A DNA stretch of 64,000 nt. Origin: an uncultured virus (IMG/VR IMGVR_UViG_3300027976_000010) (Duplodnaviria > Heunggongvirae > Uroviricota > Caudoviricetes). The translations under genes and the position numbers were made by a program. The notes below the pieces were generated by a model. That model saw only the letters and a program-made list of their open reading frames with translations. It was not told the DNA's origin and ran no database searches. Shown here piece by piece: positions 2,221 through 27,914 of this stretch (its first letter is position 1; every line of letters starts with the position of its first letter). The stretch lies in the IMG/VR virus record IMGVR_UViG_3300027976_000010, one strand, 5' to 3'.

Positions 2221-2685
2221 CTACTTCACCTTGTATTCCCGGACTTCCCACTTGCTCATCTCGGAGGTGTAAGCCTGGACGAACCACTGGCGATCTCCGT
2301 TTGTATTCAGAGAGTAAGCCTGTGCACCTCCCAGGCTCGCTATGGTGGCCCGTAGGACATCGTGTACCTCTGTGTGCGTCACATGACCGCTCATAGTGCC
2401 CTCGGAAAGAGTCCTAAGCTGGTTCCAGGCCTCCCAGGCGGTCGGGGGAGCTCCAACTCGGTCTTTCATAGCCCACCGTCGTAATGTCGCGGGCCGAGGC
2501 ATCCTGTCGCCGTCCATCGCGATTAAGGCTGTCGCGGCTTCAAGGGCTTCTTCGTTCGTTAGGTCTTTGAGGACTGACTCCCATGCGTCTAGTAGCTCCC
2601 TATAGCGTCTGTCTACAGAGGGGAGACGTTCATTCCAGCAGTTGTAAACGCGGATGATTATTGCGGCCACTTCATCACGAGTCAT
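2221..2685 (-). CDS. Putative replicative helicase loader/inhibitor (G39P-like)
   Basis: MTRDEVAAII...W..VL.DL...A......D.MP.PA pattern; lies next to a replication-initiator-like gene. Confidence 0.55.
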   Translation of the reverse strand: MTRDEVAAIIIRVYNCWNERLPSVDRRYRELLDAWESVLKDLTNEEALEAATALIAMDGDRMPRPATLRRWAMKDRVGAPPTAWEAWNQLRTLSEGTMSGHVTHTEVHDVLRATIASLGGAQAYSLNTNGDRQWFVQAYTSEMSKWEVREYKVK

Positions 2686-2775
2686 AGTGTCCCCTTCTCA
2701 TCCGCCACCGTCACGCAAAATTAGAACACACGCGCGGCGTCCGGCAGTCCCGCTGGATCGTTTCATTTGCACAGC

Positions 2776-3192
2776 TTACTTTCCTCCCGGGCGATTGTCA
2801 AGCCCTGGGCGCTCATTTAAAGCTAATTGGACGAAGCGCTCGATTCGTTTTGCGTCTCGCAGAATCAGCTCGATATCGTCGTAGCGCTTCCCGTCAGGGT
2901 TTTCGCCCATATGCCAAGCCGAGAAGCTGCAGCCTTCTACGGCCAGCAGACAAGACTCTAGGCCGAAGTCGTGAATCCCAACGCCAATTAGAATCTTACG
3001 TTCGTCGCTCAGATTCGGCGGCGGGCCCAGATTTGACGTCTTGCACCACCGTCGCCAAGTTTGGAATACTAAATCAATGTCGGCGGGACTGACGCGTTCT
3101 GCCTTGGCCTTCTTTGACAGCTTTTTTGCTGAGATGCGCGCCGGCTTAACCGGGCCATCAAAACCGAAAAGGTTATTCTGTGTCATGAGCAA
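2776..3192 (-). CDS. Phage replication-initiator-like protein (C-terminal-domain type)
   Basis: AVEGCSFSAWHMGENPDGKRYDDIELILRDAKRIERF resembles phage replication protein C-termini. Confidence 0.5.
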   Translation of the reverse strand: MLMTQNNLFGFDGPVKPARISAKKLSKKAKAERVSPADIDLVFQTWRRWCKTSNLGPPPNLSDERKILIGVGIHDFGLESCLLAVEGCSFSAWHMGENPDGKRYDDIELILRDAKRIERFVQLALNERPGLDNRPGGK

Positions 3193-3743
3193 AATATTCC
3201 AGCTTTCTCGAGCCTTGGAAACCCAAAACCCTTTATCGAGAGTACGTTCTGTAGTTGTATTCGGAGCCTCTAGGAAGAGTAGATTACTAATCCCGAGGGT
3301 AGAGCACGCAGATGTCTAATAAATCAGTGCTTTCTAGGGATATCTACCCATTTACTACTGCAACTTCTTTTTAGCGGTGAACCGTAGCGCGTAATTTGTG
3401 CTCGGTCAGGGATGTCTCGGAAATATTTTGAATATTTCCACGAACCTGATATATCTGTGTGTATACTGCATTGTGTTGGAACCCCCTTTCCAGCTGCTGG
3501 GTTTGGGCTCCTGGGAATTGCCGCCGTAGGTCGGCTTTTCTGGTTGAGCCCATTCCTAGCGTAATTTCGCGTCGCATCATCCGCCACCGTTAGCGAAATT
3601 GGTAGATTGAAAAGCAGCGGATTGGTAGATTCAAATGCGTTCTCCCACATCAACTGGGCGCCCGGGAGCGCGGGTTGGTAAATGAAATGCGATGTTCGCC
3701 GGCGTTCGGTACCCAAAACAAGGGATTCGGGACTGTAGAACAC

Positions 3744-4050: not shown

Positions 4051-4524
4051 CTAATTAGATTTATGCCCTATTGGGTCTACCGGTGGGTCGTCGACCCATT
4101 TCCCGTTTTCTGGGTGGCGTGTTAATACGCCAGCGATGCCAGTTCCGTATAAACCGGTGCCCTGCCATGCCCATTCGCAACACGGTTTGTCCTCATCGCA
4201 ATAATGCGAGTTCAATGGGATTTTTTTGGCGAGGAGAGGAAGTGCGCCCAGGAGAATAACGACGCAGTCATGACACAAAACCCATGTTTTAGATGGCAGC
4301 GTATTGTAAAGCACCTCAATGTTGTCGCTAAAGCCGTTGTAATAACCAAAATCCTCATATGGCACTATCCAGCCACATGGAAGCAAACCCCCGTTGGAGA
4401 AGTCGCCGCGTTGCGTTCGTTCGCATCCGCTACAGGTAACCAAGTCATATTCGGCCGGGTCACCAAAGGTTGTTACTACGGGCATGACCTTACCAACTCG
4501 CCTGGTAGTAGATTTCGCAGTCAT
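4051..4524 (-). CDS. Hypothetical Cys-rich protein
   Basis: ORF in a tightly packed leftward run; CSGC, LCHDC. Confidence 0.6.
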   Translation of the reverse strand: MTAKSTTRRVGKVMPVVTTFGDPAEYDLVTCSGCERTQRGDFSNGGLLPCGWIVPYEDFGYYNGFSDNIEVLYNTLPSKTWVLCHDCVVILLGALPLLAKKIPLNSHYCDEDKPCCEWAWQGTGLYGTGIAGVLTRHPENGKWVDDPPVDPIGHKSN

Positions 4525-4963
4525 CCGGTAAATTATTTAGGATGTTGTTCAGCCCATCTACCGTTGCCTCAAGATCGTCGTAATAAAAATCGGTGTACTT
4601 TGTTATGTCCTTGTAGATAAGTGCATCCAAGGTCGGCAATAGAGTGTTGGATATATCCGTGTCGCGATTGCGCAGAATAACAGTGCAGGCATCCACGAGC
4701 TCGACTAGTTGCTCGCGGGGAATGAAGGTTTTGCGGCAATCGTCCACATTGTCCTGGCAATTCTTGACGAACCAGCTGTGGATAGCGGTTGACTTGCACC
4801 ATTGGAAGGCGAGGATTGAGATTGTTGCGCTTGGGAACATCGCGCTGCTGCGGAATGCTTGTGCATCAAGAACATCCAATAGCGCATTCCACTCTATGCC
4901 CTCTGCAACGCCGCGGATCGGCGAAATGAATTTTTCTATGTATAGGTATTGGTCTAGTCCCAT
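4490..4963 (-). CDS. Conserved phage hypothetical protein (MGLDQY...W..S.AIHSWFV...Y.ASW type)
   Basis: Recognisable phage family pattern; GAGG upstream of the ATG at 4963. Confidence 0.7.
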   Translation of the reverse strand: MGLDQYLYIEKFISPIRGVAEGIEWNALLDVLDAQAFRSSAMFPSATISILAFQWCKSTAIHSWFVKNCQDNVDDCRKTFIPREQLVELVDACTVILRNRDTDISNTLLPTLDALIYKDITKYTDFYYDDLEATVDGLNNILNNLPDDCEIYYQASW

Positions 4964-5123
4964 GTCTGCCTCTCGTTTATAGTTGAATTGTCCAGTTGAT
5001 GCCGATTGCAATGCTCCATAGATACAAAGCGATTATTCCGGCGATCCCGGTGATGAAATATTTGTTATGCACCGAGCGCCGCCCAGAGAAACACGATGAC
5101 GAAAAATAACGCGAGGTTGTCCA

Positions 5124-5424: not shown

Positions 5425-5521
5425 CCTCACATTATATAAATACCGGAAGACGAAGGTCATCCGCCACCGTCGCTTAATTTTCCAGGTATAAAACGCGGCG
5501 GCGGAGGCGGGGCTCCATTGC

Positions 5522-7090: not shown

Positions 7091-7376
7091 CACATTTAAA
7101 AGACTTTTTTGATAAATCAGCTGGATACCGGTATCGCGTGCGGCTTAGATTTATCTGAAGGCTGTCATCCGCCACCGTCGCCGGTAACGCGAAGAGTAAA
7201 AAATAAGGATTCGGCAGTCCCGCACGCCCGCACGGGGCAGAAGGCAGAGAAAAAGACCGGGGCGGGACTACAGTCTTTGCCTGGGGGATTTATTCTAAGA
7301 ACTTTACCGGCGCGTCTTCAGCTTGACGATTCAACCAGATGTAAAAGCATTTCTGAAGGCTGCCGGGGAATATAAA

Positions 7377-7482: not shown

Positions 7483-7854
7483 CCCCAAACAAAATAAAGT
7501 TTAAGAATCTCACATTTTGTTTTAGCGAAGGATTCGCACGTGTAGACGTGGGCAGCTCATCCGTCACCGTCGCTGTAAATCCGCACGGGAAGCGCTACGC
7601 GGTCCCGAGGGGCTCTTTTGGGGGAAAGACTGGGGGCGGGGCTTTAAGGCGAACCAGATGGCCGAGATGTCGGCCTTCAGAGGCGCTGGGAGTCGGGGCG
7701 GGACTCCATACTCGGAATTGTATTTACTTTTATCTAGCGGGCCACCAGCGATTGCTAAAACGCCATGTTGTATCTTGGATAACCATTGGTTGAGGGCGCG
7801 GGGCAAACCAGAACTCGACCAATGCCACAGTGACAGCGGTTACCTCTTCGTCGG

Positions 7855-8312: not shown

Positions 8313-8579
8313 TCATAAGGCACTCCAGATTTTGGCTAGGGGTTGTCCCGTGGCTAATGCTTTGGTTATCATCTTTACGCAAAATGCCGGATGTTGCATT
8401 ACTTCTGGTCGGGATTCGTCCGCACCCAATACGAGCATGTGTTTGTCTGGGCCATACCGCAGACCATTGCTTTTGTCGTACGCGGCGGTGCCGTCACCGA
8501 AACCGACAACCAAAACTGACTCAATAGGAATTGAATTGCCGTTAATCGTGTTAACGACATAACCGATTTTAGTACTCAT
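8313..8579 (-). CDS. Hypothetical protein
   Basis: Translationally coupled to 8579-8872. Confidence 0.6.
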   Translation of the reverse strand: MSTKIGYVVNTINGNSIPIESVLVVGFGDGTAAYDKSNGLRYGPDKHMLVLGADESRPEVMQHPAFCVKMITKALATGQPLAKIWSAL

Positions 8580-8872
8580 TATTCTCCTTTGTTATAGCGC
8601 TGGATGTGACGATCAAGTTCGCCGGAAGTAACCCAATCAGGGAATTCGGTCTCGATCCATTCGCGGCATTCTGCTACCAATTTATCGGCAACTCCTTTAT
8701 CGGATAATTTGCCAATTCGCGGCACATCCAATGCGTAGTCCCATACATTGATTACCGCAAACGGGATTTTGCAACGTTTGGGGAAAATCTCACAGTATGG
8801 TCCGCCGTACCAGGCGAATTCAAGATTGTTTAAAGTAAGAGTGATTGCAGTCGGCGCAAGTTTTGTCTTCAT
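8579..8872 (-). CDS. Hypothetical protein
   Basis: ATGA overlap; W.GG.Y.EI...VINVWDY. Confidence 0.65.
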   Translation of the reverse strand: MKTKLAPTAITLTLNNLEFAWYGGPYCEIFPKRCKIPFAVINVWDYALDVPRIGKLSDKGVADKLVAECREWIETEFPDWVTSGELDRHIQRYNKGE

Positions 8873-9330
8873 GCATTATCCATTTCAAATATGGCCCTGG
8901 CCATTATGATTAGCATCGCCATCTTCAATTGCTCCGCAAGCGCACCAGAGCCACCAAGCATTACTTCTACATCTTTGGTTTCATCTGCAAACTGCATAGC
9001 GCTGGCCACTTCAAGATTGTGATCGATTCCAGTGACGAGCCGGACCCGGCGCCTCAGCGGGTGTTCGCTTGGTGACCCATCAAACGGTACATCCGGATGC
9101 ATTGGCGCTGCCCACCCGCATGTCTCAACACCCAGTAGGTCGTATTTGCCGAGAGGGGTACTGATATGGGAGACTTCATCTATCCCGTCGTACGCGTCGC
9201 CGTAAAAGCCGAGTGTTTTGATCTCGTCCCCAGTCATTGTGAATAGCCGGGCTTTGCCAAGGTGAAATGGATCCGGACTCTCTCCAGATAAATTTTCGTA
9301 GGCAAATTGTATCTGTTCTGCAAGTTTCAT
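8869..9330 (-). CDS. Hypothetical protein (GWAAP...PSEHP.RRRVRL)
   Basis: Coupled ORF with a motif seen in actinobacterial and actinophage proteins. Confidence 0.7.
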   Translation of the reverse strand: MKLAEQIQFAYENLSGESPDPFHLGKARLFTMTGDEIKTLGFYGDAYDGIDEVSHISTPLGKYDLLGVETCGWAAPMHPDVPFDGSPSEHPLRRRVRLVTGIDHNLEVASAMQFADETKDVEVMLGGSGALAEQLKMAMLIIMARAIFEMDNA

Positions 9331-9560
9331 TTCGTGTCTCCTGTTTGTTTTGTTAATAATTCGTCGTAATCCACTTTCAACAGCTTTAACTCGTCATTCA
9401 ATAAAAAGTTCACAAATGTGGCGTCATTGAGTTGTTCCCGGAGCCGTTCTACTTCAGTAATCCATCGCTGTACCGTTTGTGACATTGCAGGGGCTTCGCC
9501 CAAATCGACAAGCCATTTGGCTTCCTCGCGCATTTCAAAAATAATATCCGTGTCGCTCAT
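9327..9560 (-). CDS. Hypothetical coiled-coil protein
   Basis: Coupled ORF. Confidence 0.6.
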   Translation of the reverse strand: MSDTDIIFEMREEAKWLVDLGEAPAMSQTVQRWITEVERLREQLNDATFVNFLLNDELKLLKVDYDELLTKQTGDTK

Positions 9561-10192
9561 ACCGCTACCGCGAGTCGTTGGCCCAGCGTGGTGGGCAGCC
9601 GTCCTGCGAGTAGACCGGCGTCGACCGAGCGTGCGATCGCAGACTCGTAAGGTATTTCGGCGATCACCGGCGCGCCGACAACAGCCTCAACATCAGCTTT
9701 ATTGAGCGCGCGGCCTTCTTCAAAAATCAAGATGATGCCGGTGGGTGGTTGCTTGAGCGCAGCGGCATGACGCAGCGCCAAGTAACACGGCCGGATTACG
9801 AGGTATGAAACATCGGCGTAATCAACGAACGGTGAGCGACATGCGCCGCTGCCGGCATCGACGACGACAGGTACCGACATGTTCGTCAATGCCTTCGCAA
9901 GCGATTCGTAACGCGCTAGGTCGTCGAGCTCCTTGCTACCGAGCGGGATCAGCGAGAGTGAGTTGTTGGCGGGGACTAGTAGATCCTCAAGGATGCCGGC
10001 ATCGTCCTGCGACATCAGCCAGTCCGAAACCCCTGGGCCCTTTGGTTCGCCCATGCCCATCGCGGCCGGTAGGTCGCCGGCTAGGTCGACAATTCGTGCA
10101 CCGGAATCTGAACGGCCCGCAAGCATCACTCCGAGCGCGGCGGAAACCACGGTGGTACCGCTTCCACCTTTTACCGAAAAGCAAACAATCAC
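9557..10192 (-). CDS. ParA/MinD-like P-loop ATPase (Ssd/CpaE-like)
   Basis: Deviant Walker A SVKGGSGTT, VDLAGD, VVVDAG, IARSVDAGLL. Confidence 0.8.
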   Translation of the reverse strand: MIVCFSVKGGSGTTVVSAALGVMLAGRSDSGARIVDLAGDLPAAMGMGEPKGPGVSDWLMSQDDAGILEDLLVPANNSLSLIPLGSKELDDLARYESLAKALTNMSVPVVVDAGSGACRSPFVDYADVSYLVIRPCYLALRHAAALKQPPTGIILIFEEGRALNKADVEAVVGAPVIAEIPYESAIARSVDAGLLAGRLPTTLGQRLAVAV

Positions 10193-10978: not shown

Positions 10979-11199
10979 ACGGACATCCTATGGTCGCCCC
11001 CTGTCCCTTACAACCCCTAAGGGAATAAAGTCTGCTTTAGCGGCGCTTTAATTTCCTGGAAGAAGGTCATCCGCCACCGTCGACTTTATTTTGCAAATAG
11101 AAAATGTGGTCTGGAGTCCCGCCGTATGGGGGGGAGGGGTATCCCGACGGGTGAGACTGGGGAACGGGTAGAGTTGTGCGAGTCGGGACTCAATTCCAA

Positions 11200-11439
11200 C
11201 TATTCCGTCGCTCCCTTTACATACGCCTTCGCTTCCCGACCGCCGTGGTCTAGTGCCCAATGAGAAAACATTAAGTGCATCTGGATGGACAAGGCTGAAT
11301 GGCTTTTGCGATTATTACAAGTTGCCTCTGCCACAGGTACACCTGTTTCCAATGTCTCTTCGCAGCGTGGACAAATCCATTTCTCATGCTTTTGGCTGAC
11401 TAGGTGGAATTTACTCATAATCATAATAGTTTGCCCCAT
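11200..11439 (-). CDS. Small Zn-ribbon-like hypothetical protein
   Basis: WICPRC...TCN...H; GAGG upstream. Confidence 0.45.
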   Translation of the reverse strand: MGQTIMIMSKFHLVSQKHEKWICPRCEETLETGVPVAEATCNNRKSHSALSIQMHLMFSHWALDHGGREAKAYVKGATE

Positions 11440-11756
11440 AGACGTCCTCTTTTGGCGGATGTTTACTTTTTCGGAATTGTCACACCCTACACGCACACTA
11501 CAGGTAATAACAACAATCCACTCCAAACCCTTACGGGGAAAGGATAACTGATGCCAAAGAATGAAATTGAGTCACACCGTCGCGACCATCGCCTTTATCA
11601 AGCGATATTCGGATTAACGGAACAATACCCGGTACGAACCGAGAAATGCCCAATCTGCAAAGGACTAGAAAACCCTTTTCTGGATACGGAGTAGGCATCG
11701 CGGCGTTCGAGCGGCACCGGTAAAAAAGCTGGAGAAAATACAACCCAGGACAATGC

Positions 11757-14700
11757 AGTCCCGACGCACCGAGTCACCGCTGTTCGTTTCTTGCGACATC
11801 GCGCTTGCTTCACCCGCTCGCTCGCCACAATGCCCTGCGGTCATGTGTCTCATACCCACGGGGGGTATGAGTCCCTCACTCACGGAGCTACGCAAGAACC
11901 ATGTCGCATAAACGAAATAGCTGGGTTGCAGTACTGACCCGGCGACAATTGACTTACTAGTCCCGAACCCAAGTCGCGGCCATTCGTTTGTGTAACCCTT
12001 CGGGCAACGCCAGCAGTGGTTCACTTCCTTCGTTTCAGTGGCCTACGGCCATGAAACCGCGCTTGCCGCACCCGGCCGCGCAGCAGGCTTAGTTCGCTCA
12101 CCACACCCTGGCTCTGCCCCCCGGGTTTCACAAAACGAAATGCCCTACTACATTGCTTGGAGACATCACTTATTAGTCCCGAATGTCAAATGCAAGTCAT
12201 TCGTTGACTTACCCTCTCGGTACCGCCAGAAACCGCCCCATTCCTTCGTTCCAAGAGCCTGCGGCCCTGGAACCGTGCGCCGAAGCGGCTGCACGGCGGG
12301 CTCAGTTCATTCGGCGGAATTCTGGCTACACCAAACGGGTAAAATCAAACGAATGCCCCTTTGCGCCAAAGGTCAACTTATTAGTCCCGATAAACCAGAC
12401 AGTCGTCCTTGTCTTCACCATCGCTCGGCGACGCTACGCGCCATTTTATCCGCGGCCAACCATCAGCAAAAACCGCTGATGAAACTGACATTCCGCTACG
12501 CTTCAGTCAGTTTAGTTAGTTGACCCCAAATAAAATTGATGCTCCGCACGCCAGCTACTGGTGATGCCAAGAGACAGACCATCTGGTTTCTAGTCCCGCT
12601 GTTTCAACTTTCCGACGCTCATCTTATACCTATCCCTACCGCCGGTCGGCTCGGCTCTGCTTGCCACGTCCGCTCCTGACAAGTCCATCAGCAAAAAACG
12701 CTGATAGAAATCACATTACGTTGTAATGGATTTCTTTCCTTGTCAGAAACTCCCTCGCAAGCAATGCCGAAGCCTCGCTCGCGTGCGGGATCGGCATAAA
12801 GAATGAGCATCTCTTCTTTAGAGTCCCGAGTTTTATTACTGGTTCGCGTTGCGCCAAGGCACGGCGTTATCCAGACACATACGCATCCTTTCAGAATGCT
12901 ACCGCTAGTGGAGCCACTCTCTGCCGCTACGCCGGCTTTCCGCCACGTTCCACTACGTTCCACGTCATCTCCAAGCCTGGCTTGCGTCAGACAGATGTCC
13001 CCCCCGCTTGCGTACTGGATAACTTCGCTTCTGGCGCCCCGAAATGACAAAGAACTTCATAGTCCCGAATCACAATCCCCGTTCTTTTAGCCACCTCGTC
13101 TACATTCGTGTCGCAACGGTCCGCCTCCCTTTAGTGTAAATGCGCCATAAACCGTGTTCGCTACGCTAGCAAGGCACAACCTTGCTGCGCACGGTCGTGC
13201 TCGCCACGCGTTTTCCGCTACACGCTTTTGCCTTTTTACACATCGGTTCGTCGGAACCAGTTGCTCCACGAAAGCCGCTCGCTAACTAAAAAGAACTAGC
13301 ACTAGTGGGTCCCGATAGTACAAATCACGCATCTGACTCCCGGCCCCACGGCGGCCGGTAGATCAAGATGCTTCGTCTAGCAATCTAGACCGCTTCATAG
13401 TCCCGATGAGATTTCTTTCCGATGGTCTGTTTTTATTCCGACAACCGCCACGCCGCTCGCAGTCATTTTGTACGCGGGATCCTTGATGCGCCGTTGGCAA
13501 TGCCAACCAGCGCATCGGCACATCCCTACCGTAAAAAATGAAATGCTCGCTAGTGGCTTCTGTCCGCATAAAAAACAAAACCATCTGGTTCCTGGTCCCG
13601 CAATCTTCCGATGCCCGCCCTTATTCTGACCGAGGTCTCCGCCCTCACCTTTATGTATTCACTACGGGTGCCAGAGCGCAACTTCAGCAAAAACCGCTGA
13701 GCCAAACGGCATTTTCGCGTACGCTCCAATGCTTGTTTGGTGTTGCGCCCGGGCTCCTCTCCGTAAATAAATAAAAGGCTCGTTCTCCGACCAAGGTCAT
13801 CGTAAGAGGCGGAGCATCTAGTTTCTAGTCCCGACTTTTAATGAACAATCGGTGCCGACGCCAAGACGCGAAAACTATCCAGAAGCACACTCCCCTGTTG
13901 CACACAACAGCCTCGTGACGCTACCGGATCCATTGTCTGAGCGTAACGCCCTGCTTTCCACTACGTTCCAAGCCCGGCTAACGCCAGAAAAATGGCTCCC
14001 CCGCTTGCTTACTGGACGTCTTTCGCTTCTGGCGACCAGCACAACCGACAAAGAACTTCCTGGTCCCGCCCCTAACAACTCACGGTTGCTTAGTCCGTCC
14101 CAAATAGGTACCGCTCCCTGCGTGCGTTTCGCTTTCCCGTCAAATCGCCACCAACCGTGTTCGCTACGCTTGCAAGGCACAACTTTGCTTCGCACGTTGT
14201 GCTAGCAGCGTTTTTCGCTACACGGTTCTGTCTCTTTGACGACCCGCTCACGCAACGCAGGACGCTTAACCTCATTTGGGAATGGACATAAACAACCTGG
14301 TTCCCTAGTCCCGACCATGTGAGCCATGTTGCAGAAAACTTTAACCCGTGTAATTTGGCGCCGTAACGCCAATGCGATGTGCCCATCGCAAGGCGTTAGG
14401 ACGGGGGGAGCGCCGAAATGACACTACTCAATTTTGTTACAGCCGTATCACCGTTCCCGGCTACTTAGTCCCGTATCGGCATTACTGTAATGTTCGCGGA
14501 CCCAATAACGCCATCTTCGTCTATGTTGCCACGCCTACACCGTTTGAAGTTACAGCTTCAGTCACGTCGATTTACAGCACCTTCCGAAATGGCTACGCCA
14601 TTCGGACGCTGATTTAGAAAAATCAGCCCCGGCGCGTAAATCTCGCTCGTTCGCGTAACACCAAACGAGTTCCGGCTGAGCAACACGCCAAATCTGCCGA

Positions 14701-17700
14701 TTATCGTGTCCTGTACTACTGAGTCCCGATCAATAAAACAAATCTTACGGCGCGTTTTCGGCAAGTCCTTCCAGGCTTGGGCTCCCACGCACGTACGCTG
14801 CCGCATCACACGCCACTCACACGTTGTATTCGCGGTACGTCTATGTCCTGCGTATGCCTCAGGCTCGATAACTTCGTTAGCGCCCAGTTTGTTCACTACG
14901 TTCCAAACCTGGCTTCTCGCTTTCTTCGGCACGCAGGACATAGAACCGTGTGCTGATGCCGCTCCCTCCGCGTGCGAACCCCAAAGCCAATGGAACGACA
15001 ATTGCCCAACGACGCCTGGTTCCCGCTTACAAGTCCCGTAGCAATATCCCTAACATCATCATTACATCTCGTGTACTTCGCACGTTGCCGGCTCCGTCTC
15101 CGAATCCGTGCTTCGCACTAGTTCGGAACCTACGCCCGGCAAGACACGGGTCAGACGCTATGCGTCGCCCCGCTTGCTCCCTACTCTCAATGTAACTCTA
15201 TAGTCCCGAATCTAATGATTTACAAACTGGGGAATTTCAATTTGGGACTCCGTCAAGTCGGACCCTCTCGTTTGATTAATTGGCTCTACCTCATCGCCTG
15301 CGGCTCTTCGGTGCGCCTACGTCTTTCGCTCAATTATTCAAACTGCCGGTTCTCAACTTAACGGAAGTCCCACCCGGGGTCGGCAAGGACCACTACCTAG
15401 TCCCGACTTCAATAACAATGACGATTACCTCGCACCAAAGTGTTTGCTGGCTTTTCAAATATTTCTCCTCCAACTATTTTGTTATTTACGCAGAAATACA
15501 CTGCTCTTCGCTCCTGCGTCGCTAGAAATAACAAACATAGTTTCCCCCGGAATATTTAAAAACCTACCCTTACTCTCTCGCGTTGCTCGTTCGTTTCGGC
15601 GAGCACACTTTGATTACTCGATAATCTAGTTTCAACTAGATAGTCCCGTCTATCGCAACCCGTGTCAGCTCGCCCACCGCGCCGCGGCGCTCCCGCTTCG
15701 CAGTACGCTGCCACTAAGCGGGCGCATCGCAACAACGGGTTGCTATAGGTCTCGCCCTTCTGAGTCCCGACTATCTTACAAGTTACGGCGTAATCCAAAT
15801 ACCCTGAAGTTTTTCGCACGCTGGCCCCCTTGTCGCTACGCTCCTACGGGCACCGCTGCACGAAAAATCACGAAATCACGCCCTTGCTTCGCCCGGTCGG
15901 ATTTCTTTACTTCAGCCTATTTGTCTTATGCCTGAATACCCTGGTTACTATAAACTTCCACTACGGGAAACGCGGTGCGTTCCCGTCGCGAACTAGGGGT
16001 TCGCGCTGTTATTCCCTAGTCCCGCACTATGTTGAATAACGATCGACCGTATCTTTATGCTTATGCGACCACTACGCAAAAAGTAAATACCGCTTCGCTA
16101 GCCCTGCGGGCTTATGTACTTTGTTACTGCGTGTCGCAACGCACAAAAGACACTAGTTCGTGATTGCGGACTTTACTTCAATCGGCACGCCACAAGGGCG
16201 TCCCTCACTAACAACTCCCGAGTCCCGAATGTAAACGGCTTCCCGCCCTTTGTGCTCCACCACGGAACCTGCGCACAACATTCGCACCGCTTCGCTAGGC
16301 CCTGGGGGCCTTGCTCTGTTGATGCTACGCTGCCGTGCTGTCCGCAAAAAAAGGCTGTCGTGTTGGTGTCAACTACAACTACTATAGAGTCCCGAATGTG
16401 AACAACTGACCGTACTTTTTTGCTTATGACTCTACGCTCCGCACATCGCTCGTACCGCTGCGCACTCGGCGATGACGCTTCGCTGCCAGTCATCGCAAGA
16501 AAAGATACGAGTTTGTGATCGGATAGTTTCCTTAATCGGCCCGCCACAAGGGCGGCCCTCATCATGAACTACCTAGTCCCGAATACATTGGGATAACAAC
16601 TAACCGTATCCGTAGTCAACTGTCTCTCGTGACGCTATCTTCTCCATTTCCACCGTGTTGCTTTGACGCTCCTTCGTCGCTCACCTTGTCTCCGACTTCG
16701 GTGCGAAAACAACACTCAAAAAATGTCGGCGTTGCGCTACCCGATCAACAGTTGCCATACGGACACTCTTTTATGGCTGGAGTCCCGGCACTCACGAGTC
16801 CCGACTACCCGATAGGGCGCGGCCTAATCCGAATATCCCAGAGTTTCCCGGTACTACGCCGTCGGACGCTTCGCTTACCGAAGCCCTAGCACCTGGAACC
16901 ACGAAATCACGCCTTCGCTACGCTCAATCGGATTTCTTTACTCTGGGCTATTAGTCTTACGCCTAGGTATCCCGGTTACTATAAATGTCCGTTACGGGAT
17001 GCGCGGTGCGCACCCGTCGCGAGCGGGGGGCTCGCGCCACTATTTCCTAGTCCCGAATGTTTTAGACCACTGACTCCCCGCATTTTTTGCTCCCCGCGTA
17101 AGCTACGCACGAAGTAAACACGCTTCGCTGGATCCTGCGGATCCGTGTACTTCAGCGCTACGCAGTACGCGTCCGCAAAGAAAATGCTATCCCCGGAGAC
17201 GGAGCACTCCAGAGTCCCGATTGTTATATGTCTGCGATTACGGAACCCAAAGCCCTAACCAGGTTATTTCAAAAGTGCTCCCCCGCATTCTGAAATGTTT
17301 GCGCAGAAAACCACTGCTTCCCGCTCCTGCGTCGCTCAAAACATTTCCGAAAGCTCCGCCGACTTTTGAAAAAACTACCCTTGCTCTCTCGCTTCGCTCA
17401 TTCGCTTCAGCTGGCACGCTTTGACTTTCCGCAATCTTCTCTATGGGAAGGCGTAGGCTTATGTTCCCGATATCTTCGCTCATACTTCGCTACGAGCATC
17501 GGAACCAACGCCATACGCCCCTGGAGTCGTGTCCGTTGGGGAGTCCCGAATAGTTAGTGGCGAAGCAAACTCGCTATCTCGTATGCGCTCGCTCCCCGAC
17601 GGCTGTGCTACTCCATTTTCTCACTTTGCGCACTCGCTCCTTCGTCGCTTCACTTCGCCTGCGGCTTCGTTCGTGCACCAAAGTTCAAAAATCGTCGGCG

Positions 17701-17777
17701 CCCGGCCGTCGGTACACTCTCACAATCCGAGCGCTCGTTTTAGACAACGCCTATCCGTGTTGTACTCAGGAGTCCCG
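11757..17777. repeat. Non-coding array of about 30 structured ~200-nt units delimited by RGTCCCG
   Basis: 27 AGTCCCG plus 3 GGTCCCG, all on +; unit ends are self-complementary; several units are paralogous; no credible ORFs. Confidence 0.9.
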
Positions 17778-18005
17778 TTACTTTTGTTCAATCTTTAATG
17801 TCACACGGATTGTGTCTCCGTCAACATCATTAACCTCCAACCCGAGTTCATCCAGTATTGTGTCGGCCACATCGCTCATCTGGCTATACAGTTTTCTCAG
17901 CTCATTATCCGAAAACCCCTCCTCAAAGGAGATGTCAAATAAGGTGTCTGCTATCTGGTTGACTATTGAAAGCCTTGCTTCATGCGGGTTTAAGACCATT
18001 GACAA
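17778..18005 (-). CDS. Small acidic hypothetical protein (start uncertain)
   Basis: Protein-like acidic helical ORF; its stop codon directly abuts the last array motif. Confidence 0.6.
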   Translation of the reverse strand: MSMVLNPHEARLSIVNQIADTLFDISFEEGFSDNELRKLYSQMSDVADTILDELGLEVNDVDGDTIRVTLKIEQK

Positions 18006-18069
18006 AGGCTACCAGATGACGGTATGCTACTGCAAGGCACATTCACGACAACACAAGGAGAATCCGAAC

Positions 18070-20024: not shown

Positions 20025-20477
20025 ATGTCTAAGCACATGTCATTAGAAGACAGGTTTTTCCAAAAGGTTCTTAAAACAGATTCTTGCTGGTTGTGGACCG
20101 GGGGTATTGCCACACAGGGATACGGTGTATTTAGGGTAGACGGCAAATCGGTTAGTGCCCATAGACATTCTTACAAAATCCACAAAGGAGAGATACCGGA
20201 TGGGATGCATGTCTGTCACTCGTGTGATGTCAGAAATTGTGTAAATCCAGATCATTTATGGGTTGGAACCGCAACCGACAACATGCAGGATATGATTAAG
20301 AAGGGCAGACAGTGCGCAGCTAATAAAAAGCAGGAAAGGTGCAAGCACGGTCACTCCTTTGAAATAGATGGGCATCGTGTATATGTCTATAAGGGCAGGT
20401 CGTGGCGCATATGCCTTACGTGTAAAAAAGCTGCTAATAGATCGGCATCTCTTGCATGTTCTTCATCGCGTCCGTAG
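20025..20477 (+). CDS. HNH homing endonuclease
   Basis: CWLWTG...YG.F...AHR.SY...VCHSCD.RNCVNPDHL..GT..DN..DM..KGR. Confidence 0.92.
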   Translation: MSKHMSLEDRFFQKVLKTDSCWLWTGGIATQGYGVFRVDGKSVSAHRHSYKIHKGEIPDGMHVCHSCDVRNCVNPDHLWVGTATDNMQDMIKKGRQCAANKKQERCKHGHSFEIDGHRVYVYKGRSWRICLTCKKAANRSASLACSSSRP

Positions 20478-20540
20478 CTCAGTGGATAGAGCAGCAGGTT
20501 TCTACCCTGCGTGTCGGGGGTTCGATTCCCTTCGGGCGCA
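20468..20540 (+). tRNA. tRNA-Arg(TCT)
   Basis: Cloverleaf; anticodon arm GCAGG-TTTCTAC-CCTGC; GGTTCGATTCC. Confidence 0.9.
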
Positions 20541-20561
20541 CGATAATGATATAGTTCATAT

Positions 20562-21266
20562 ATGGCCTGCGTGTATGCGTTATCCTCGTCTCTCGCTCCA
20601 GATATAGTGCGTTATGTCGGTCGTTCTAAATTGGATACCGCCGGAAATAGGTTGGGTAAACATCTATTCCTGGCTCGGAATAGTCAAAATTTAGGTCATA
20701 AAAATAATTGGATTAGGAGTGTTCTCAAACAAGGAGGCTCAATAGTGAGTTTGGTTTTAGAATCTGGGCTTTCATGGGGGGAGTCTGGCCAAAGAGAGAT
20801 TTTCCATATTGCTCATTATAAAAGTGTCGGGTATGATTTAACAAATATGACAGACGGTGGTGATGGCGTCATTGGATTCATTCATTCTGTTGAAGCACGT
20901 GCGAAAATGAGTGCCGCAAATTTAGGGAGAGTACATTCGCTTGAACATCGGGCAAAAATTAGAGTCGCACAATTGGGGAATAAGCGCTCGCCAGAAACCA
21001 GAGCTAAAATAAGCGCCGCAGGATTGGGGAGAGTACAGTCGCCTGAGCATCGGACAAAAATTGGGGCTGGGCATTTAGGGATAAAGCCCTCGCTGGAAGC
21101 TAGGGCCAAAATGAGTGCTGCGGGATTGGGGAAACCAAAGTCACCAGAGCATCGGGCAAAAATAGGCGCAGCGCACAAGGGGAGAGTATTATCTCCTGAA
21201 CACAGGGCGAAAATAAGTGCCACCCTGCGAAATAGATATAGGATCAGTACGTCTTCTCTGATATAG
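20562..21266 (+). CDS. GIY-YIG endonuclease with seven NUMOD3-type 17-aa repeats
   Basis: VYAL...RYVG...R..H...E...LTNMTDGGDG, then (H/S)SxExRAK(I/M)S repeats. Confidence 0.88.
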   Translation: MACVYALSSSLAPDIVRYVGRSKLDTAGNRLGKHLFLARNSQNLGHKNNWIRSVLKQGGSIVSLVLESGLSWGESGQREIFHIAHYKSVGYDLTNMTDGGDGVIGFIHSVEARAKMSAANLGRVHSLEHRAKIRVAQLGNKRSPETRAKISAAGLGRVQSPEHRTKIGAGHLGIKPSLEARAKMSAAGLGKPKSPEHRAKIGAAHKGRVLSPEHRAKISATLRNRYRISTSSLI

Positions 21267-21274
21267 TTAAAAAT

Positions 21275-21360
21275 GGAACGGTGACCGAGTGGTTTAAGGT
21301 ACTGCCTTGCTAAGGCAACGGGCTAGCGCCCCGTGGGTTCAAATCCCACTCGTTCCTCCA
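21275..21360 (+). tRNA. tRNA-Ser(GCT)
   Basis: Long variable arm, loop TTGCTAA, encoded CCA. Confidence 0.9.
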
Positions 21361-21381
21361 ATTTACTGATATAGTGAATGC

Positions 21382-21456
21382 ATCGGTGTAGTTCAACGGT
21401 AGAACGGCAGCTTCCAAAACTGCGCGTCGGGGGTTCGACTCCTCTCATCGGTGCCA
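21382..21456 (+). tRNA. tRNA-Trp(CCA)
   Basis: Loop TTCCAAA, T arm GGTTCGACTCC, encoded CCA. Confidence 0.8.
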
Positions 21457-21621
21457 GAACGTATAGGTGGCTATCCCTCTCGGGGCACTCGTAGGGGTTG
21501 GGTTCGATTCCCATTACATTCACGGACGGGTGGGGGGTGCGGTGCCCGAGGAGGGTGTCGGTCTAGACCCCCCTACCCCACCCCAAGTTGTTATTATCTC
21601 CTCTTGGTGTTATGCTGATAG

Positions 21622-21693
21622 AGCGGAATAGAACATTGGTAGTTCGCCGGGCTCATAACTCGGATGTAGTGGGTCCGATTCCCACTTCCGCCA
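21622..21693 (+). tRNA. tRNA-Met(CAT), initiator-like
   Basis: Loop CTCATAA, GGG in the anticodon stem, 1:72 mismatch. Confidence 0.8.
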
Positions 21694-21697
21694 CTAA

Positions 21698-21770
21698 GTC
21701 AGGGTAGTTCAATGGACGAGAATGCTAGTTTACGGAACTAGCGATGGGGGTTCGACTCCCTCTCTTGACA
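21698..21770 (+). tRNA. tRNA-Arg(ACG)
   Basis: CTAGT-TTACGGA-ACTAG. Confidence 0.85.
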
Positions 21771-21780
21771 CGAAAAATAA

Positions 21781-21853
21781 CGGAGTGTAGCGCAGTTGGC
21801 AGCGCGCCTGGTTTGGGACCAGGAGGCCGGTGGTTCGAGACCACCCACCCCGA
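21781..21853 (+). tRNA. tRNA-Pro(TGG)
   Basis: CGGAGTGTAGCGCAG...CCTGG-TTTGGGA-CCAGG. Confidence 0.9.
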
Positions 21854-21858
21854 CGTAT

Positions 21859-21931
21859 GTGGCTGTAGTCCAATGGCAGAACGCGGGGTTGTGGTCCCCG
21901 TCACGTAGGTTCGATTCCTACTGGTCACCCA
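21859..21931 (+). tRNA. tRNA-His(GTG)
   Basis: CGGGG-TTGTGGT-CCCCG; C discriminator. Confidence 0.85.
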
Positions 21932-21933
21932 AA

Positions 21934-22006
21934 CGGCGTGTAGCTCAAACGGCAGAGCATCTGTGTGAAGTGCAGAGGGTTGGTGGTTCGACTCCATCCG
22001 CGTCGG
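21934..22006 (+). tRNA. tRNA-Phe(GAA), atypical anticodon loop
   Basis: TCTGT-GTGAAGT-GCAGA; normal D and T arms. Confidence 0.75.
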
Positions 22007-22034
22007 CGTTACAATCTATACGTATACTATTTAT

Positions 22035-22107
22035 GCCCGTGGACCTGGTTGGGACTAGGACCTCACTTGTAATGAGGACACAGGAGGTCCGAATCCTCTC
22101 GCGGGCT
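22035..22107 (+). tRNA. tRNA-Thr(TGT)
   Basis: CCTCA-CTTGTAA-TGAGG; acceptor GCCCGTG/CGCGGGC. Confidence 0.8.
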
Positions 22108-22140
22108 CAAGGAGGTGCGGCATGCGCGTCGCACCGACTA

Positions 22141-22231
22141 GGAGTACCAGCCGGTGATTGGTTTTCCCGCTAAAGTCGCCATACTCCCGCGCAAGGGATG
22201 CTGTGGATATGCGGGCACTGGCTGGTATTCC
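22141..22231 (+). ncRNA. Candidate ~90-nt structured ncRNA within the tRNA cluster
   Basis: 16-bp closing stem GGAGTACCAGCCGGTG/CACTGGCTGGTATTCC, with inner CCCGC/GCGGG and TCCC/GGGA stems. Confidence 0.5.
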
Positions 22232-22238
22232 AAATTTT

Positions 22239-22313
22239 GCATCATTAACTCATCGTTGGTAGAGTGTCAGTTTTCCAAACTGAATGCGGTCAGTTCAAGC
22301 CTGACATGATGCT
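22239..22313 (+). tRNA. tRNA-Gly(TCC)
   Basis: TCAGT-TTTCCAA-ACTGA; acceptor GCATCAT/ATGATGC. Confidence 0.85.
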
Positions 22314-22388
22314 CCGGTTAAGCAGTCCACATAAATATAAAACAGATTATAGCCACGCACGAGGCTATTATTAAATATTTAATCATGA

Positions 22389-27543: not shown

Positions 27544-27914
27544 TGATCGACATGACAATTCAGGATCAGGATGTTGCCGTAGCCCGTCGCCAGCGAATGA
27601 AGTATCGGCACCTTGATACGGATGGTCCACCAAAGCCCCCATCTGGCGGTGCATGCGTAAACACGCCGACGGATTTATTTTTTCCTGGCCCGAATGGAAA
27701 CATCGGGGACCGGCTCAAGATAAAGGAAGCTAAAAAGATTTGTGCACAGTGTCGCGTGCAGACGCAATGTTTGGTTTATGCCCTTGAATGGGAACCTTAC
27801 GGTATCTGGGGTGGTCATACCGAGAGCCAGCGTATTTATTTGCGTCGTAAGTTACAAGTAACATCCCGTCGTTCCGACGAGGCCGTCCGTCTCAATAATC
27901 TCATGGAGCTATAA
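27543..27914 (+). CDS. whiB: WhiB-family transcription factor
   Basis: GAC...FFP...AKKICAQCRVQTQC...GIWGG. Confidence 0.92.
   Translation: MIDMTIQDQDVAVARRQRMKYRHLDTDGPPKPPSGGACVNTPTDLFFPGPNGNIGDRLKIKEAKKICAQCRVQTQCLVYALEWEPYGIWGGHTESQRIYLRRKLQVTSRRSDEAVRLNNLMEL

Follow-up and report, generated by a model that had tools for sequence, protein, structure and literature searches.

A conserved array of structured non-coding modules separated by a single-orientation heptamer in large lake actinophages

The 64,000-nucleotide (nt) stretch of the uncultured virus IMGVR_UViG_3300027976_000010 analysed here (the window) comes from a large lake phage whose hosts are actinobacteria. Between positions 11,757 and 17,777 it holds a non-coding array in which the heptamer RGTCCCG, or CGGGACY on the opposite strand, separates modules of diverse sequence. 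A preliminary description, made from the letters alone, had proposed an array of independently folding modules with a short boundary site in one orientation, and our results demonstrate that this array is real and selected. The motif recurs in a single orientation, the modules fold better than shuffled sequences, their helices covary, the two strands differ in composition, and the architecture is conserved in three groups of phages. The minus strand, on which the motif reads CGGGACU, is most likely the working one. With moderate confidence, we take the array to encode a long non-coding RNA (ncRNA), made from the minus strand by the host, whose many folded modules are separated by a recognised site; the RNA would be cut there or act as a multivalent binder, and would work in bulk early in infection.

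Results

A single-orientation motif divides 6 kb of non-coding DNA

Scanning both strands of the window gave 30 copies of RGTCCCG between 11757 and 17777 (27 AGTCCCG and three GGTCCCG), all on the plus strand, and no copy in reverse orientation within these limits, exactly as first listed. Across the whole window there are 41 copies, where 100 shuffles gave 13.8 ± 3.7 and none reached 41. Scaled to 6 kb, the chance level is about 0.65 copies per strand, in line with the earlier estimate of fewer than one. The spacing is mostly 160–255 nt, as had been described (24 of 29 intervals), the remaining intervals being 16, 91, 121, 310 and 329 nt long. The units differ in sequence as claimed, with only a few paralogous pairs at 72–79% identity.

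The earlier view that the region contains no credible open reading frame (ORF) holds, as no conserved coding signal was found. The longest stop-free stretch in the array is 175 codons, and tblastn of 95 six-frame segments of the window array against two other arrays gave no match, against 34 matches for the flank control. Codon periodicity was informative only in the GC-rich array of a related phage, G004 (described below), which shows none: the spread of GC content across codon positions (GC3 spread) is 0.01–0.07 in the array and 0.12–0.5 in the flanks; in the window the flanks are flat too.

Rfam searches over positions 1–23000 of the window (E ≤ 1) and over the related loci L032 and L186 (E ≤ 0.5) found nothing in any array. 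ARAGORN and the Rfam tRNA model RF00005 gave matches only at 20468–22315, 35474 and 37962, and none in 11757–17777. A blastn search of the array DNA against 50,697 phage records yielded no match. We found no published account of such an array, and the part of the COBRA paper on lake actinophages available to us (PMC10914622) does not mention it.

The array fits no CRISPR, integron or tRNA architecture, which bears out the first impression. Only seven invariant bases and a few flanking positions are conserved, not a CRISPR repeat of about 23–50 bp, and scans against PHROG, Pfam and PADLOC turned up no cas family, the sole PADLOC match being a generic 2-oxoglutarate (2OG) domain. Within the array the motif lacks an inverted partner, and no integrase family was found in the scans; the attC core consensus was not part of the search. 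Neither Pfam nor PADLOC reported a ToxN/AbiQ-type toxin, and the units (91–329 nt) are mostly unalignable to each other. For 6S RNA and Ms1 there was no Rfam match (E ≤ 1 in the window, E ≤ 0.5 in L032 and G004) and, judged by eye, no consistent central bubble. No transposase was found.

The array is kept in three groups of lake actinophages

A pattern scan of viral contigs yielded 29 loci, seven of which carry true arrays. One of these, L010, is the window's own phage (99.99% identity), and the other true-array loci form a sister group. Its flanking DNA shares about 70% identity with that of the window, while its arrays cannot be aligned to the window's. Among the loci without arrays, L002, L022 and L026 hold coding repeats of the GGCAAnGTCGGCATCGGGACT type, and the others are tandem repeats or chance occurrences. 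G002, a complete sister genome of 174 kb, has 27 motif copies, 23 of them in one orientation within 1.6–12.5 kb. Among 39 loci with a relative of the window's single-stranded DNA-binding protein (SSB), 16 carry at least four motif copies upstream of ssb, and all 16 of their SSBs are at least 72% identical.

A third group is represented by G004 (97.9 kb, 65% GC; loci L186/L187), where 37 CGGGACY copies lie on one strand over 13.2 kb (C1:17529-30700). Their spacing is irregular (63–1273 nt), and this is the largest array seen, taking up about 13% of the available 98 kb. The arrays of the three groups range from 19 to 37 units and from about 4 to 13 kb. Unit number shifts by segmental duplication, gain and loss between sister genomes, and unit order is conserved across five of them.

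After the array, on the same strand in all three groups, come a small zinc-ribbon ORF and then homologues of the window ORFs 8313–9330, 4490–5011, 2221–3192 and 1709–2062. The preliminary description had proposed a search of related phages for syntenic arrays upstream of ssb. Two further groups do keep syntenic arrays, and the position beside ssb holds in two groups but not in G004; the conserved neighbour is the downstream cluster of small genes. A pattern scan of 6 of 64 metagenome parts gave at least 117 loci; of those listed, none is related to the arrays by blastn, and all are tandem or coding repeats or chance occurrences. The records G003, G005 and G006 show no array and are uninformative because they are incomplete.

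The modules fold better than shuffled sequences

All folds reported here are predictions. The 28 modules of the window (the 16-nt interval was skipped) were folded on both strands, with RNA and DNA parameters, against dinucleotide shuffles, a check that the preliminary description had proposed, and beat the shuffles in all four settings. With RNA parameters (60 shuffles) the mean z was −3.05 on the plus and −3.56 on the minus strand, at mean energies of −67.9 and −84.6 kcal/mol. With DNA parameters (20 shuffles) it was −3.12 and −3.78, and 24 of the 28 units fell below −2 on the minus strand. The pairs of complementary unit ends quoted earlier are present in the sequence. Overall, the ends are mutually paired in the minimum-energy folds of 17 of the 28 window units, where the base that pairs first behind the 5′ motif has its partner at most 15 nt from the 3′ motif, and of 15 of 28 units of L032.

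The predicted shape is a rod or a Y, most commonly a rod with a forked tip; many small loops are visible by eye, and one unit family appears to end in a C(UUCG)G tip. Watson–Crick stems are joined by internal loops of G-A type, for example CGUAG opposite CGAAG as a 3×3 loop, and GCGA, CGAG and GAGC are each predicted to pair with their own copies. Most CGNAG copies oppose one another as 3×3 internal loops and do not form hairpin tips. Because these loops use them, certain words are strongly biased towards the motif strand. AGCG occurs 95 times on the motif strand and 11 times on the other in the window, 104 and 14 times in the sister-group array L012, and 298 and 38 times in G004. The corresponding counts are 36 and 0, 48 and 4, and 121 and 7 for AGCGA, and 80 and 20, 70 and 15, and 261 and 61 for CGNAG, so that G004 shows the same word biases as the other arrays. 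With G-A-type loops, a strongly purine-rich strand can therefore fold fully, both sides of the helix being purine-rich and poor in C.

Compensatory changes and strand asymmetry point to the minus strand

On the motif strand, which is the minus strand of the window, G exceeds C and A exceeds T in all three phage groups. We clustered 240 units (158 distinct) into 49 clusters and compared the strands in every family that had four or more members of similar length, 15 in all. In 14 of these the consensus fold energy was lower on the motif strand (sums of −674 and −471 kcal/mol for the motif and the other strand), and the aligned pairs comprised 550 G-U cells on the motif strand against 278 on the other, and 44 against 81 A-C cells. 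The units of G004 had a z of −1.67 on the motif strand and −0.45 on the other. A G/A-rich motif strand, stronger consensus folds and the preference for G-U over A-C thus indicate that the minus strand is most likely the working one. The preliminary description had read the array on the plus strand; its motif stands, and the evidence favours the opposite strand, CGGGACU, an assignment that for the window array rests on the sister arrays.

Covariation, also suggested earlier as a check, was found. Family 6, with seven sequences, has a consensus fold of −81.5 kcal/mol on the motif strand and −41.9 on the other, and 19 of its 76 pairs change on both sides and yet stay paired, compared with 9.7 ± 1.8 in 500 column shuffles, none of which reached 19, and with 0–5 pairs in slid controls. 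Only one unit family of the window can be recognised in the sister group as well (nhmmer E 3e-9); in its alignment 17 of 58 pairs are compensated. These counts come from small sets of related sequences whose kinship is not modelled.

The motif behaves as a punctuation mark of the operon

The extended site, common to two phage groups, is U-CGGGACU-A-NNN-A(G)(U). Outside the arrays its hexamer is avoided, with 7 occurrences against 18 expected in the window from 18.1 to 64 kb (z −3.4, rank 2 of 4096) and 2 against 11.2 in G002 from 13 to 174 kb (z −3.2). Full copies outside the array lie mostly in gaps between genes of the downstream cluster, in the same orientation, as CGGGACUGC. Being avoided elsewhere, yet kept in the gaps between operon genes, the motif behaves as a punctuation mark of the operon. 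The scarcity of another, array-enriched word in G002 (GAAGCGA, among the scarcest 7-mers at 13001–173962, with 11 copies against 24.8 expected, z −3.9) suggests that array words besides the boundary motif may also be avoided elsewhere.

Three paralogous hairpin elements lie downstream of the array (Table 1), and behind each, read in the minus sense, come a U-rich run and a 16-mer. These elements may be operon terminators, stabilisers or a source of array growth; their interiors are G-rich on the plus strand. The 16-mer is a second recurrent word, TCATCCGYCACCGTCG, with six copies at 0–2 mismatches in one orientation where about 0.9 would be expected at up to three mismatches, and four of the six sit 28–35 nt downstream (minus sense) of CGGGACY. 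The word resembles a regulatory signal, given that short ORFs ending in it lack conservation.

Table 1 Features of the array and its surroundings in the window (positions of the whole stretch)
Feature	Position	Strand	Description	Basis
Array	11757..17777	-	29 intervals (28 modules of 91–329 nt and one of 16 nt) between 30 CGGGACY	motif positions, spacing, composition, folding
First motif copy (minus sense)	17771..17777	-	abuts TAA of the upstream small ORF	sequence reading
Last motif copy, CGGGACUGC type	11745..11764	-	7-pair hairpin, then U-rich run; terminator-like, a weak call (11 such sites in the region, 9.6 expected)	consensus scan
Small acidic ORF	17778..17999	-	about 73–75 amino acids, immediately upstream of array	ORF call
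Putative promoter	18006..18035	-	TTGCAG, 18 nt, TAGCCT, ending 6 nt before ATG 17999	reading of sequence
Zinc-ribbon ORF	11200..11418	-	72 amino acids, W-x-CPxC...C-x-N-x3-H, just downstream of array	conserved there in all three groups
Hairpin element	11115..11190	-	closed by GAGUCCCG...CGGGACUC; then U-rich run and 16-mer CGACGGTGGCGGATGA (11067-11082)	
Paralogous hairpin element	7601..7705	-	closed by motif and inverted copy; then 16-mer 7557-7572	
Paralogous hairpin element	7216..7269	-	closed by motif and inverted copy; then 16-mer 7165-7180	
Intergenic CGGGACUGC copy	2746..2752	-	32 nt before 16-mer, 61 nt before start codon of ORF 2221-2685 (-)	
TCATCCGYCACCGTCG copies	2698-2713, 3577-3592, 5457-5472, 7165-7180, 7557-7572, 11067-11082		gaps between minus-strand genes	
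ParA-like gene	9557-10192			
C5 methyltransferase gene	18672-19820			

Genes and signals around the array

The array is preceded on the minus strand by a small acidic ORF whose TAA abuts the first motif both in the window and in the sister-group locus L012. Counterparts in the L032 group share 51–57% identity with the encoded protein, G004 yielded none, and no Pfam or PHROG family matches it. The promoter-like sequence in front of it would give a leaderless transcript; its second element resembles the TANNNT type of −10 element found in actinobacteria.

The zinc-ribbon protein encoded just after the array is a candidate partner of it. Its structure model has a mean confidence (pLDDT) of 75, and we found no Pfam family, no Atlas lead above 0.89 and no Foldseek match in the PDB at E ≤ 0.001. 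Its distant homologues, L206–L211, lie at loci without a CGGGACY array.

Elsewhere, the window encodes two WhiB proteins, a capsid protein 46% identical to capsids of Gordonia phages, SSB, the C5 methyltransferase, an SNF2 helicase, a primase-helicase, ribonucleotide reductase and ten clustered tRNAs, 2.7 kb from the array. HNH and NUMOD3 homing endonuclease genes lie within the tRNA cluster (20025–21266, plus strand), and the sister group has no tRNA cluster at that place. Between tRNA-Trp and tRNA-Met, positions 21457–21521 (plus strand) give a weak Rfam match of mascRNA type (E 0.058, below the gathering score), which may be a degenerate tRNA. The primase-helicase ORF (27914–30679, plus strand) contains a LAGLIDADG domain, suggesting an intein. 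A 5437-residue ORF beside the capsid gene (45398–61711, minus strand) has Zeta_toxin, Clp_N and NUDIX domains and no polymerase domain, and resembles a giant multi-domain protein that is part of the virion or injected.

A Pfam scan of 136 of the 139 G002 ORFs of at least 110 codons found no phage RNA polymerase; two giant ORFs were scanned with PADLOC only, so a polymerase domain there is not excluded. The PADLOC scan of G002 covered 87 sequences (83 ORFs and four halves of the two giant ORFs) and reports defence families only, which makes it uninformative on RNA polymerase. The ORFs of the window likewise yielded no phage RNA polymerase. Reverse transcriptase, RNA ligase and dedicated RNase families were absent from the ORFs of the window and of G002, where for the two giant ORFs only the six-frame reverse transcriptase search applies. 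G002 does encode a staphylococcal-nuclease homologue and a sigma-70 region-4-like protein. It also encodes more than a dozen 2OG-Fe(II) oxygenase paralogues, with no DNA polymerase family match among the ORFs scanned. Between 13001 and 173962 its sequence contains no GATC (940 expected), and ACGT, TCGA and CGCG are strongly avoided.

Discussion

A proposed punctuated RNA precursor

Our findings suggest the following course of events. Host RNA polymerase would transcribe the minus strand, with the array at the head of an operon whose small genes are probably early. The roughly 30 modules of the transcript would fold independently into rods or Ys, their sequences changing fast with pairing maintained. 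Between modules, the site U-CGGGACU-A-NNN-A would be read by a sequence-specific factor. One possibility is an endoribonuclease whose cuts would release numerous stable, structured RNAs, each about 200 nt long; another is a protein that the RNA binds at many sites. Early in infection, the RNAs may then work by sheer quantity, as a decoy or sponge.

Actinobacterial RNase E, acting as GGGA|CU, is a candidate cutter. According to the part of the published work available to us, the mycobacterial enzyme cuts single-stranded RNA 5′ of cytidines and prefers RR|CNU (PMC10641625), and cutting 5′ of C after purines is also reported in the accessible part of a second study (10.64898/2026.04.06.716707). 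Unpaired RRC sites inside the window modules number 40, compared with 66.8 ± 7.5 in shuffles.

Several observations weigh against this reading, some of them against RNase E in particular. Exposed RRC is not clearly depleted in the other arrays (58 against 65 ± 5.6 in L032, 43 against 55 ± 6.2 in G004), and 1.4–2.2 exposed sites per module persist. GGGA|CU fits the enzyme only in part, since position +3 is A and the preferred base is U. The seven invariant bases go far beyond the known needs of RNase E and therefore point to a more specific reader, so RNase E is a weak candidate. No partner protein was identified, the zinc-ribbon neighbour having no informative match, and the promoter-like TTGCAG-18-TAGCCT was read by eye and not reported by a promoter scan. 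The preliminary description had placed the motif in an unpaired linker. In agreement with this, 23 of 29 units in the window and 23 of 28 in L032 contain no complement to it (RGUYYYG, G-U allowed), but folding predictions do not single the motif out: its partition-function probability of being unpaired is 0.3–0.45 against a mean of 0.36, and when units are folded singly, all four bases of GACU are free in only 3 of 28 copies at the 5′ end and 9 of 28 at the 3′ end. GNRA or UNCG tetraloops account for none of 14 predicted in the window and none of 21 in L032, while C(GNA)G makes up 21 of the 37 predicted triloops in the window, a loop type known from very stable DNA mini-hairpins. Finally, the z-scores obtained with DNA parameters are as strong as those obtained with RNA parameters.

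A bolder version of the RNA reading, which we consider doubtful, is a new class of phage RNA weapon, independent of reverse transcriptase. C-poor rods joined by G-A pairs and encoded in multi-kilobase arrays, released or displayed through CGGGACU, would flood the cell early and jam a host nucleic-acid machine, for which the actinobacterial RNase E degradosome and an RNA-sensing defence are candidates, and the modules would diversify in an arms race.

Other explanations

It is unlikely that the array is an uncut structured leader, left untranslated and poor in C so as to resist termination and decay, which delays or insulates expression of the small genes downstream and in which the motif is a pause, antitermination or protein-loading signal. 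The constant place ahead of the small-gene cluster and on the strand of these genes, the variation in length from about 4 to 13 kb between groups, and the recurrence of the motif between downstream genes would all suit such a leader, as would the G-rich, C-poor composition, which befits an untranslated RNA escaping Rho. However, a timer or insulator needs neither some 20 ordered, distinct unit families with covarying helices nor a seven-base invariant site at each module boundary, and the last motif copy carries a terminator-like hairpin.

We regard as quite unlikely that the working form is single-stranded DNA (ssDNA), with minus-strand hairpins at which priming or loading takes place, or which form an element linked to replication or act as decoys against DNA-directed defences, and with the motif as a nicking or binding site. 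The strength of the DNA-parameter folds speaks for it, as do the enrichment of CGNAG on the motif strand in all three arrays counted, the resemblance of GCGWAGC-type elements to the very stable d(GCGAAGC) mini-hairpin, the lack of predicted GNRA and UNCG loops, and the place of ssb beside the array in two groups. Set against this, 6–27% of the predicted pairs are G-T, which are costly in DNA, most CGNAG copies are facing internal loops and not tips, and the adjacency of ssb is lost in G004. There is also no evident route by which the strand would be exposed, as our scans found no HUH-type nuclease, relaxase, N4-type polymerase or reverse transcriptase, and the succession of promoter, ORF, array and operon suits a transcript. 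RNA is favoured over ssDNA. The preliminary description had listed processed ncRNAs, ssDNA elements, decoys and a recombination substrate as possible roles; this list is narrowed with RNA in front, and the idea of a recombination cassette found no support.

An improbable alternative makes the motif a site in double-stranded DNA, such as a repressor stoperator or a partition, packaging or restriction-related site, and the folding of the spacers secondary. A single orientation relative to transcription and copies in intergenic gaps would be expected of such a site; the hexamer is also avoided elsewhere with both strands pooled, and a ParA-like gene and a C5 methyltransferase gene lie in the window. 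The strand-asymmetric covariation and G-U use of the spacers would nevertheless go unexplained, the ParA-like gene is absent from that place in the sister groups, and the copies are concentrated in one array instead of being dispersed.

Very improbable is a template array whose hairpins are copied into complementary DNA (cDNA) by an unrecognised or host reverse transcriptase, as in phage UG27 systems. The architecture is strikingly like that of UG27 arrays as described in the part of the preprint available to us (bioRxiv 10.64898/2026.09.22.753630). However, a six-frame search with RVT_1 matched none of five records, including the complete G002, although the control genomes matched. No reverse transcriptase appeared in the Pfam scans of the window ORFs and of 136 of 139 G002 ORFs or in the PADLOC scan of 87 G002 sequences. 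The UG27 motif AUCN7UANAG occurs seven times in the window, where 6.6 are expected, and once in the array; the UG27 motifs lie in an internal loop, whereas the motif here marks module boundaries.

Least probable of all is a selfish or neutral repeat, that is, foldback elements multiplied locally without a role for the phage. Change in unit number by segmental duplication and loss, and the fast divergence of the units, are what it would predict; an invariant motif, compensatory changes that keep pairing, a unit order conserved across five sister genomes, and an unchanged place in the operon despite flanking proteins that share just 30–70% identity across the three groups are not, and no transposase was found.

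Further candidates were rejected. For a promoter used by a phage polymerase or an extracytoplasmic-function (ECF) sigma factor, we found no phage RNA polymerase among the 136 G002 ORFs scanned with Pfam and no conserved element 15–30 nt downstream of the motif. For hairpin promoters of the N4 type, in which a virion RNA polymerase uses a few short hairpins with 3-nt loops ahead of early genes, the 5437-residue ORF lacks a polymerase domain and no RNA polymerase family was found in 136 G002 ORFs, its two giant ORFs having been scanned with PADLOC only. Mimicry of 16S rRNA or of the tRNA T-arm by AGUCCCG ends at 7 nt of match and conflicts with the strand logic. A Chi-like or Type III restriction strand bias is contradicted by inverted copies outside the array and leaves the covarying rods unexplained. 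A position near the genome end is not indicated either, as the apparent terminal repeat of G002 is only 123 bp and probably an overlap of a circular assembly.

Comparison with known systems

The closest known system is that of the UG27 reverse-transcriptase ncRNA arrays of phages, for which we draw on the same partial account of the preprint. UG27 arrays are phage-borne tandem units of 135–167 nt, diverse in sequence, conserved in structure and marked by short conserved motifs (AUCN7UANAG and UUYA, in an internal loop of each unit). Units are gained and lost between close relatives, with about six per locus (82,314 units in 14,118 loci). The ncRNAs template cDNA hairpins, and the reverse transcriptase and two accessory ORFs lie beside the array (bioRxiv 10.64898/2026.09.22.753630). 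Tandem hairpin units, diverse sequence, conserved structure, and gain and loss among relatives are all found in our arrays. The differences are that no reverse transcriptase or accessory genes were found here, that AUCN7UANAG is not above chance, that the hosts are actinobacteria, that the conserved site lies between units, and that an array has 19–37 units over 4–13 kb. The actinophage arrays belong to the same general kind, phage arrays of structured ncRNA units. The only comparable arrays, reported in 2026, need a reverse transcriptase and none was found here, so the array probably works differently.

Other systems share single features. Phage tRNA clusters are also tandem structured RNAs with paired 5′ and 3′ ends, cut from one precursor at unit boundaries; the array, in contrast, has no cloverleaf but rods of 91–329 nt, and its boundary is a sequence motif, not a structure. 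The precursor RNA of CRISPR (pre-crRNA) likewise has variable segments between copies of a short conserved element, all in one orientation, and cutting takes place at these copies, but the element is 7–9 nt here instead of a 23–50-nt repeat, the variable parts are long, structured and in homologous families, and no cas genes were found. ToxI and phage pseudo-ToxI are tandem RNA arrays cut at a short site by a sequence-specific endoribonuclease, with phages making mimics; ToxI repeats are, however, short, near-identical and beside the toxin gene, and neither holds here.

The sponge RNAs CsrB and RsmZ resemble the array in their many copies of a short exposed motif amid hairpins, and 6S RNA and Ms1 in being rods of about 200–300 nt with little sequence conservation. 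The array is 10–40 times longer than these, its motif is not GGA in hairpin loops, there is no Rfam match and no central bubble is evident. In T7-type early operons, punctuated by RNase III or RNase E, a processing signal recurs between cistrons, as the motif here recurs between downstream genes, but most of the "cistrons" here are non-coding modules and the signal is a specific heptamer. The stoperators of cluster A mycobacteriophages are some 30 short asymmetric sites in an actinophage, in one orientation to transcription and in intergenic gaps; they are genome-wide and without covarying hairpins between them, whereas 30 of 41 copies in the window and 23 of 27 in G002 lie in one array.

Biological significance

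Phages rarely spare sequence, and these lake actinophages give 4–13 kb to non-coding modules, about 2% of the complete 174-kb genome and, with 13.2 kb, 13% of the 98 kb in hand for G004. Pairing is kept while sequence changes fast, which points to a function that lies in the shape and copy number of RNA (or ssDNA), not in proteins. The pairings of GCGA with GCGA, CGAG with CGAG and CGNAG with CGNAG amount to a design rule that allows tight folding of a strongly purine-rich strand. Should the punctuation site serve for processing or binding, it would give direct access to a sequence-specific RNA–protein interaction in bacteria that are abundant in lakes and mostly uncultured.

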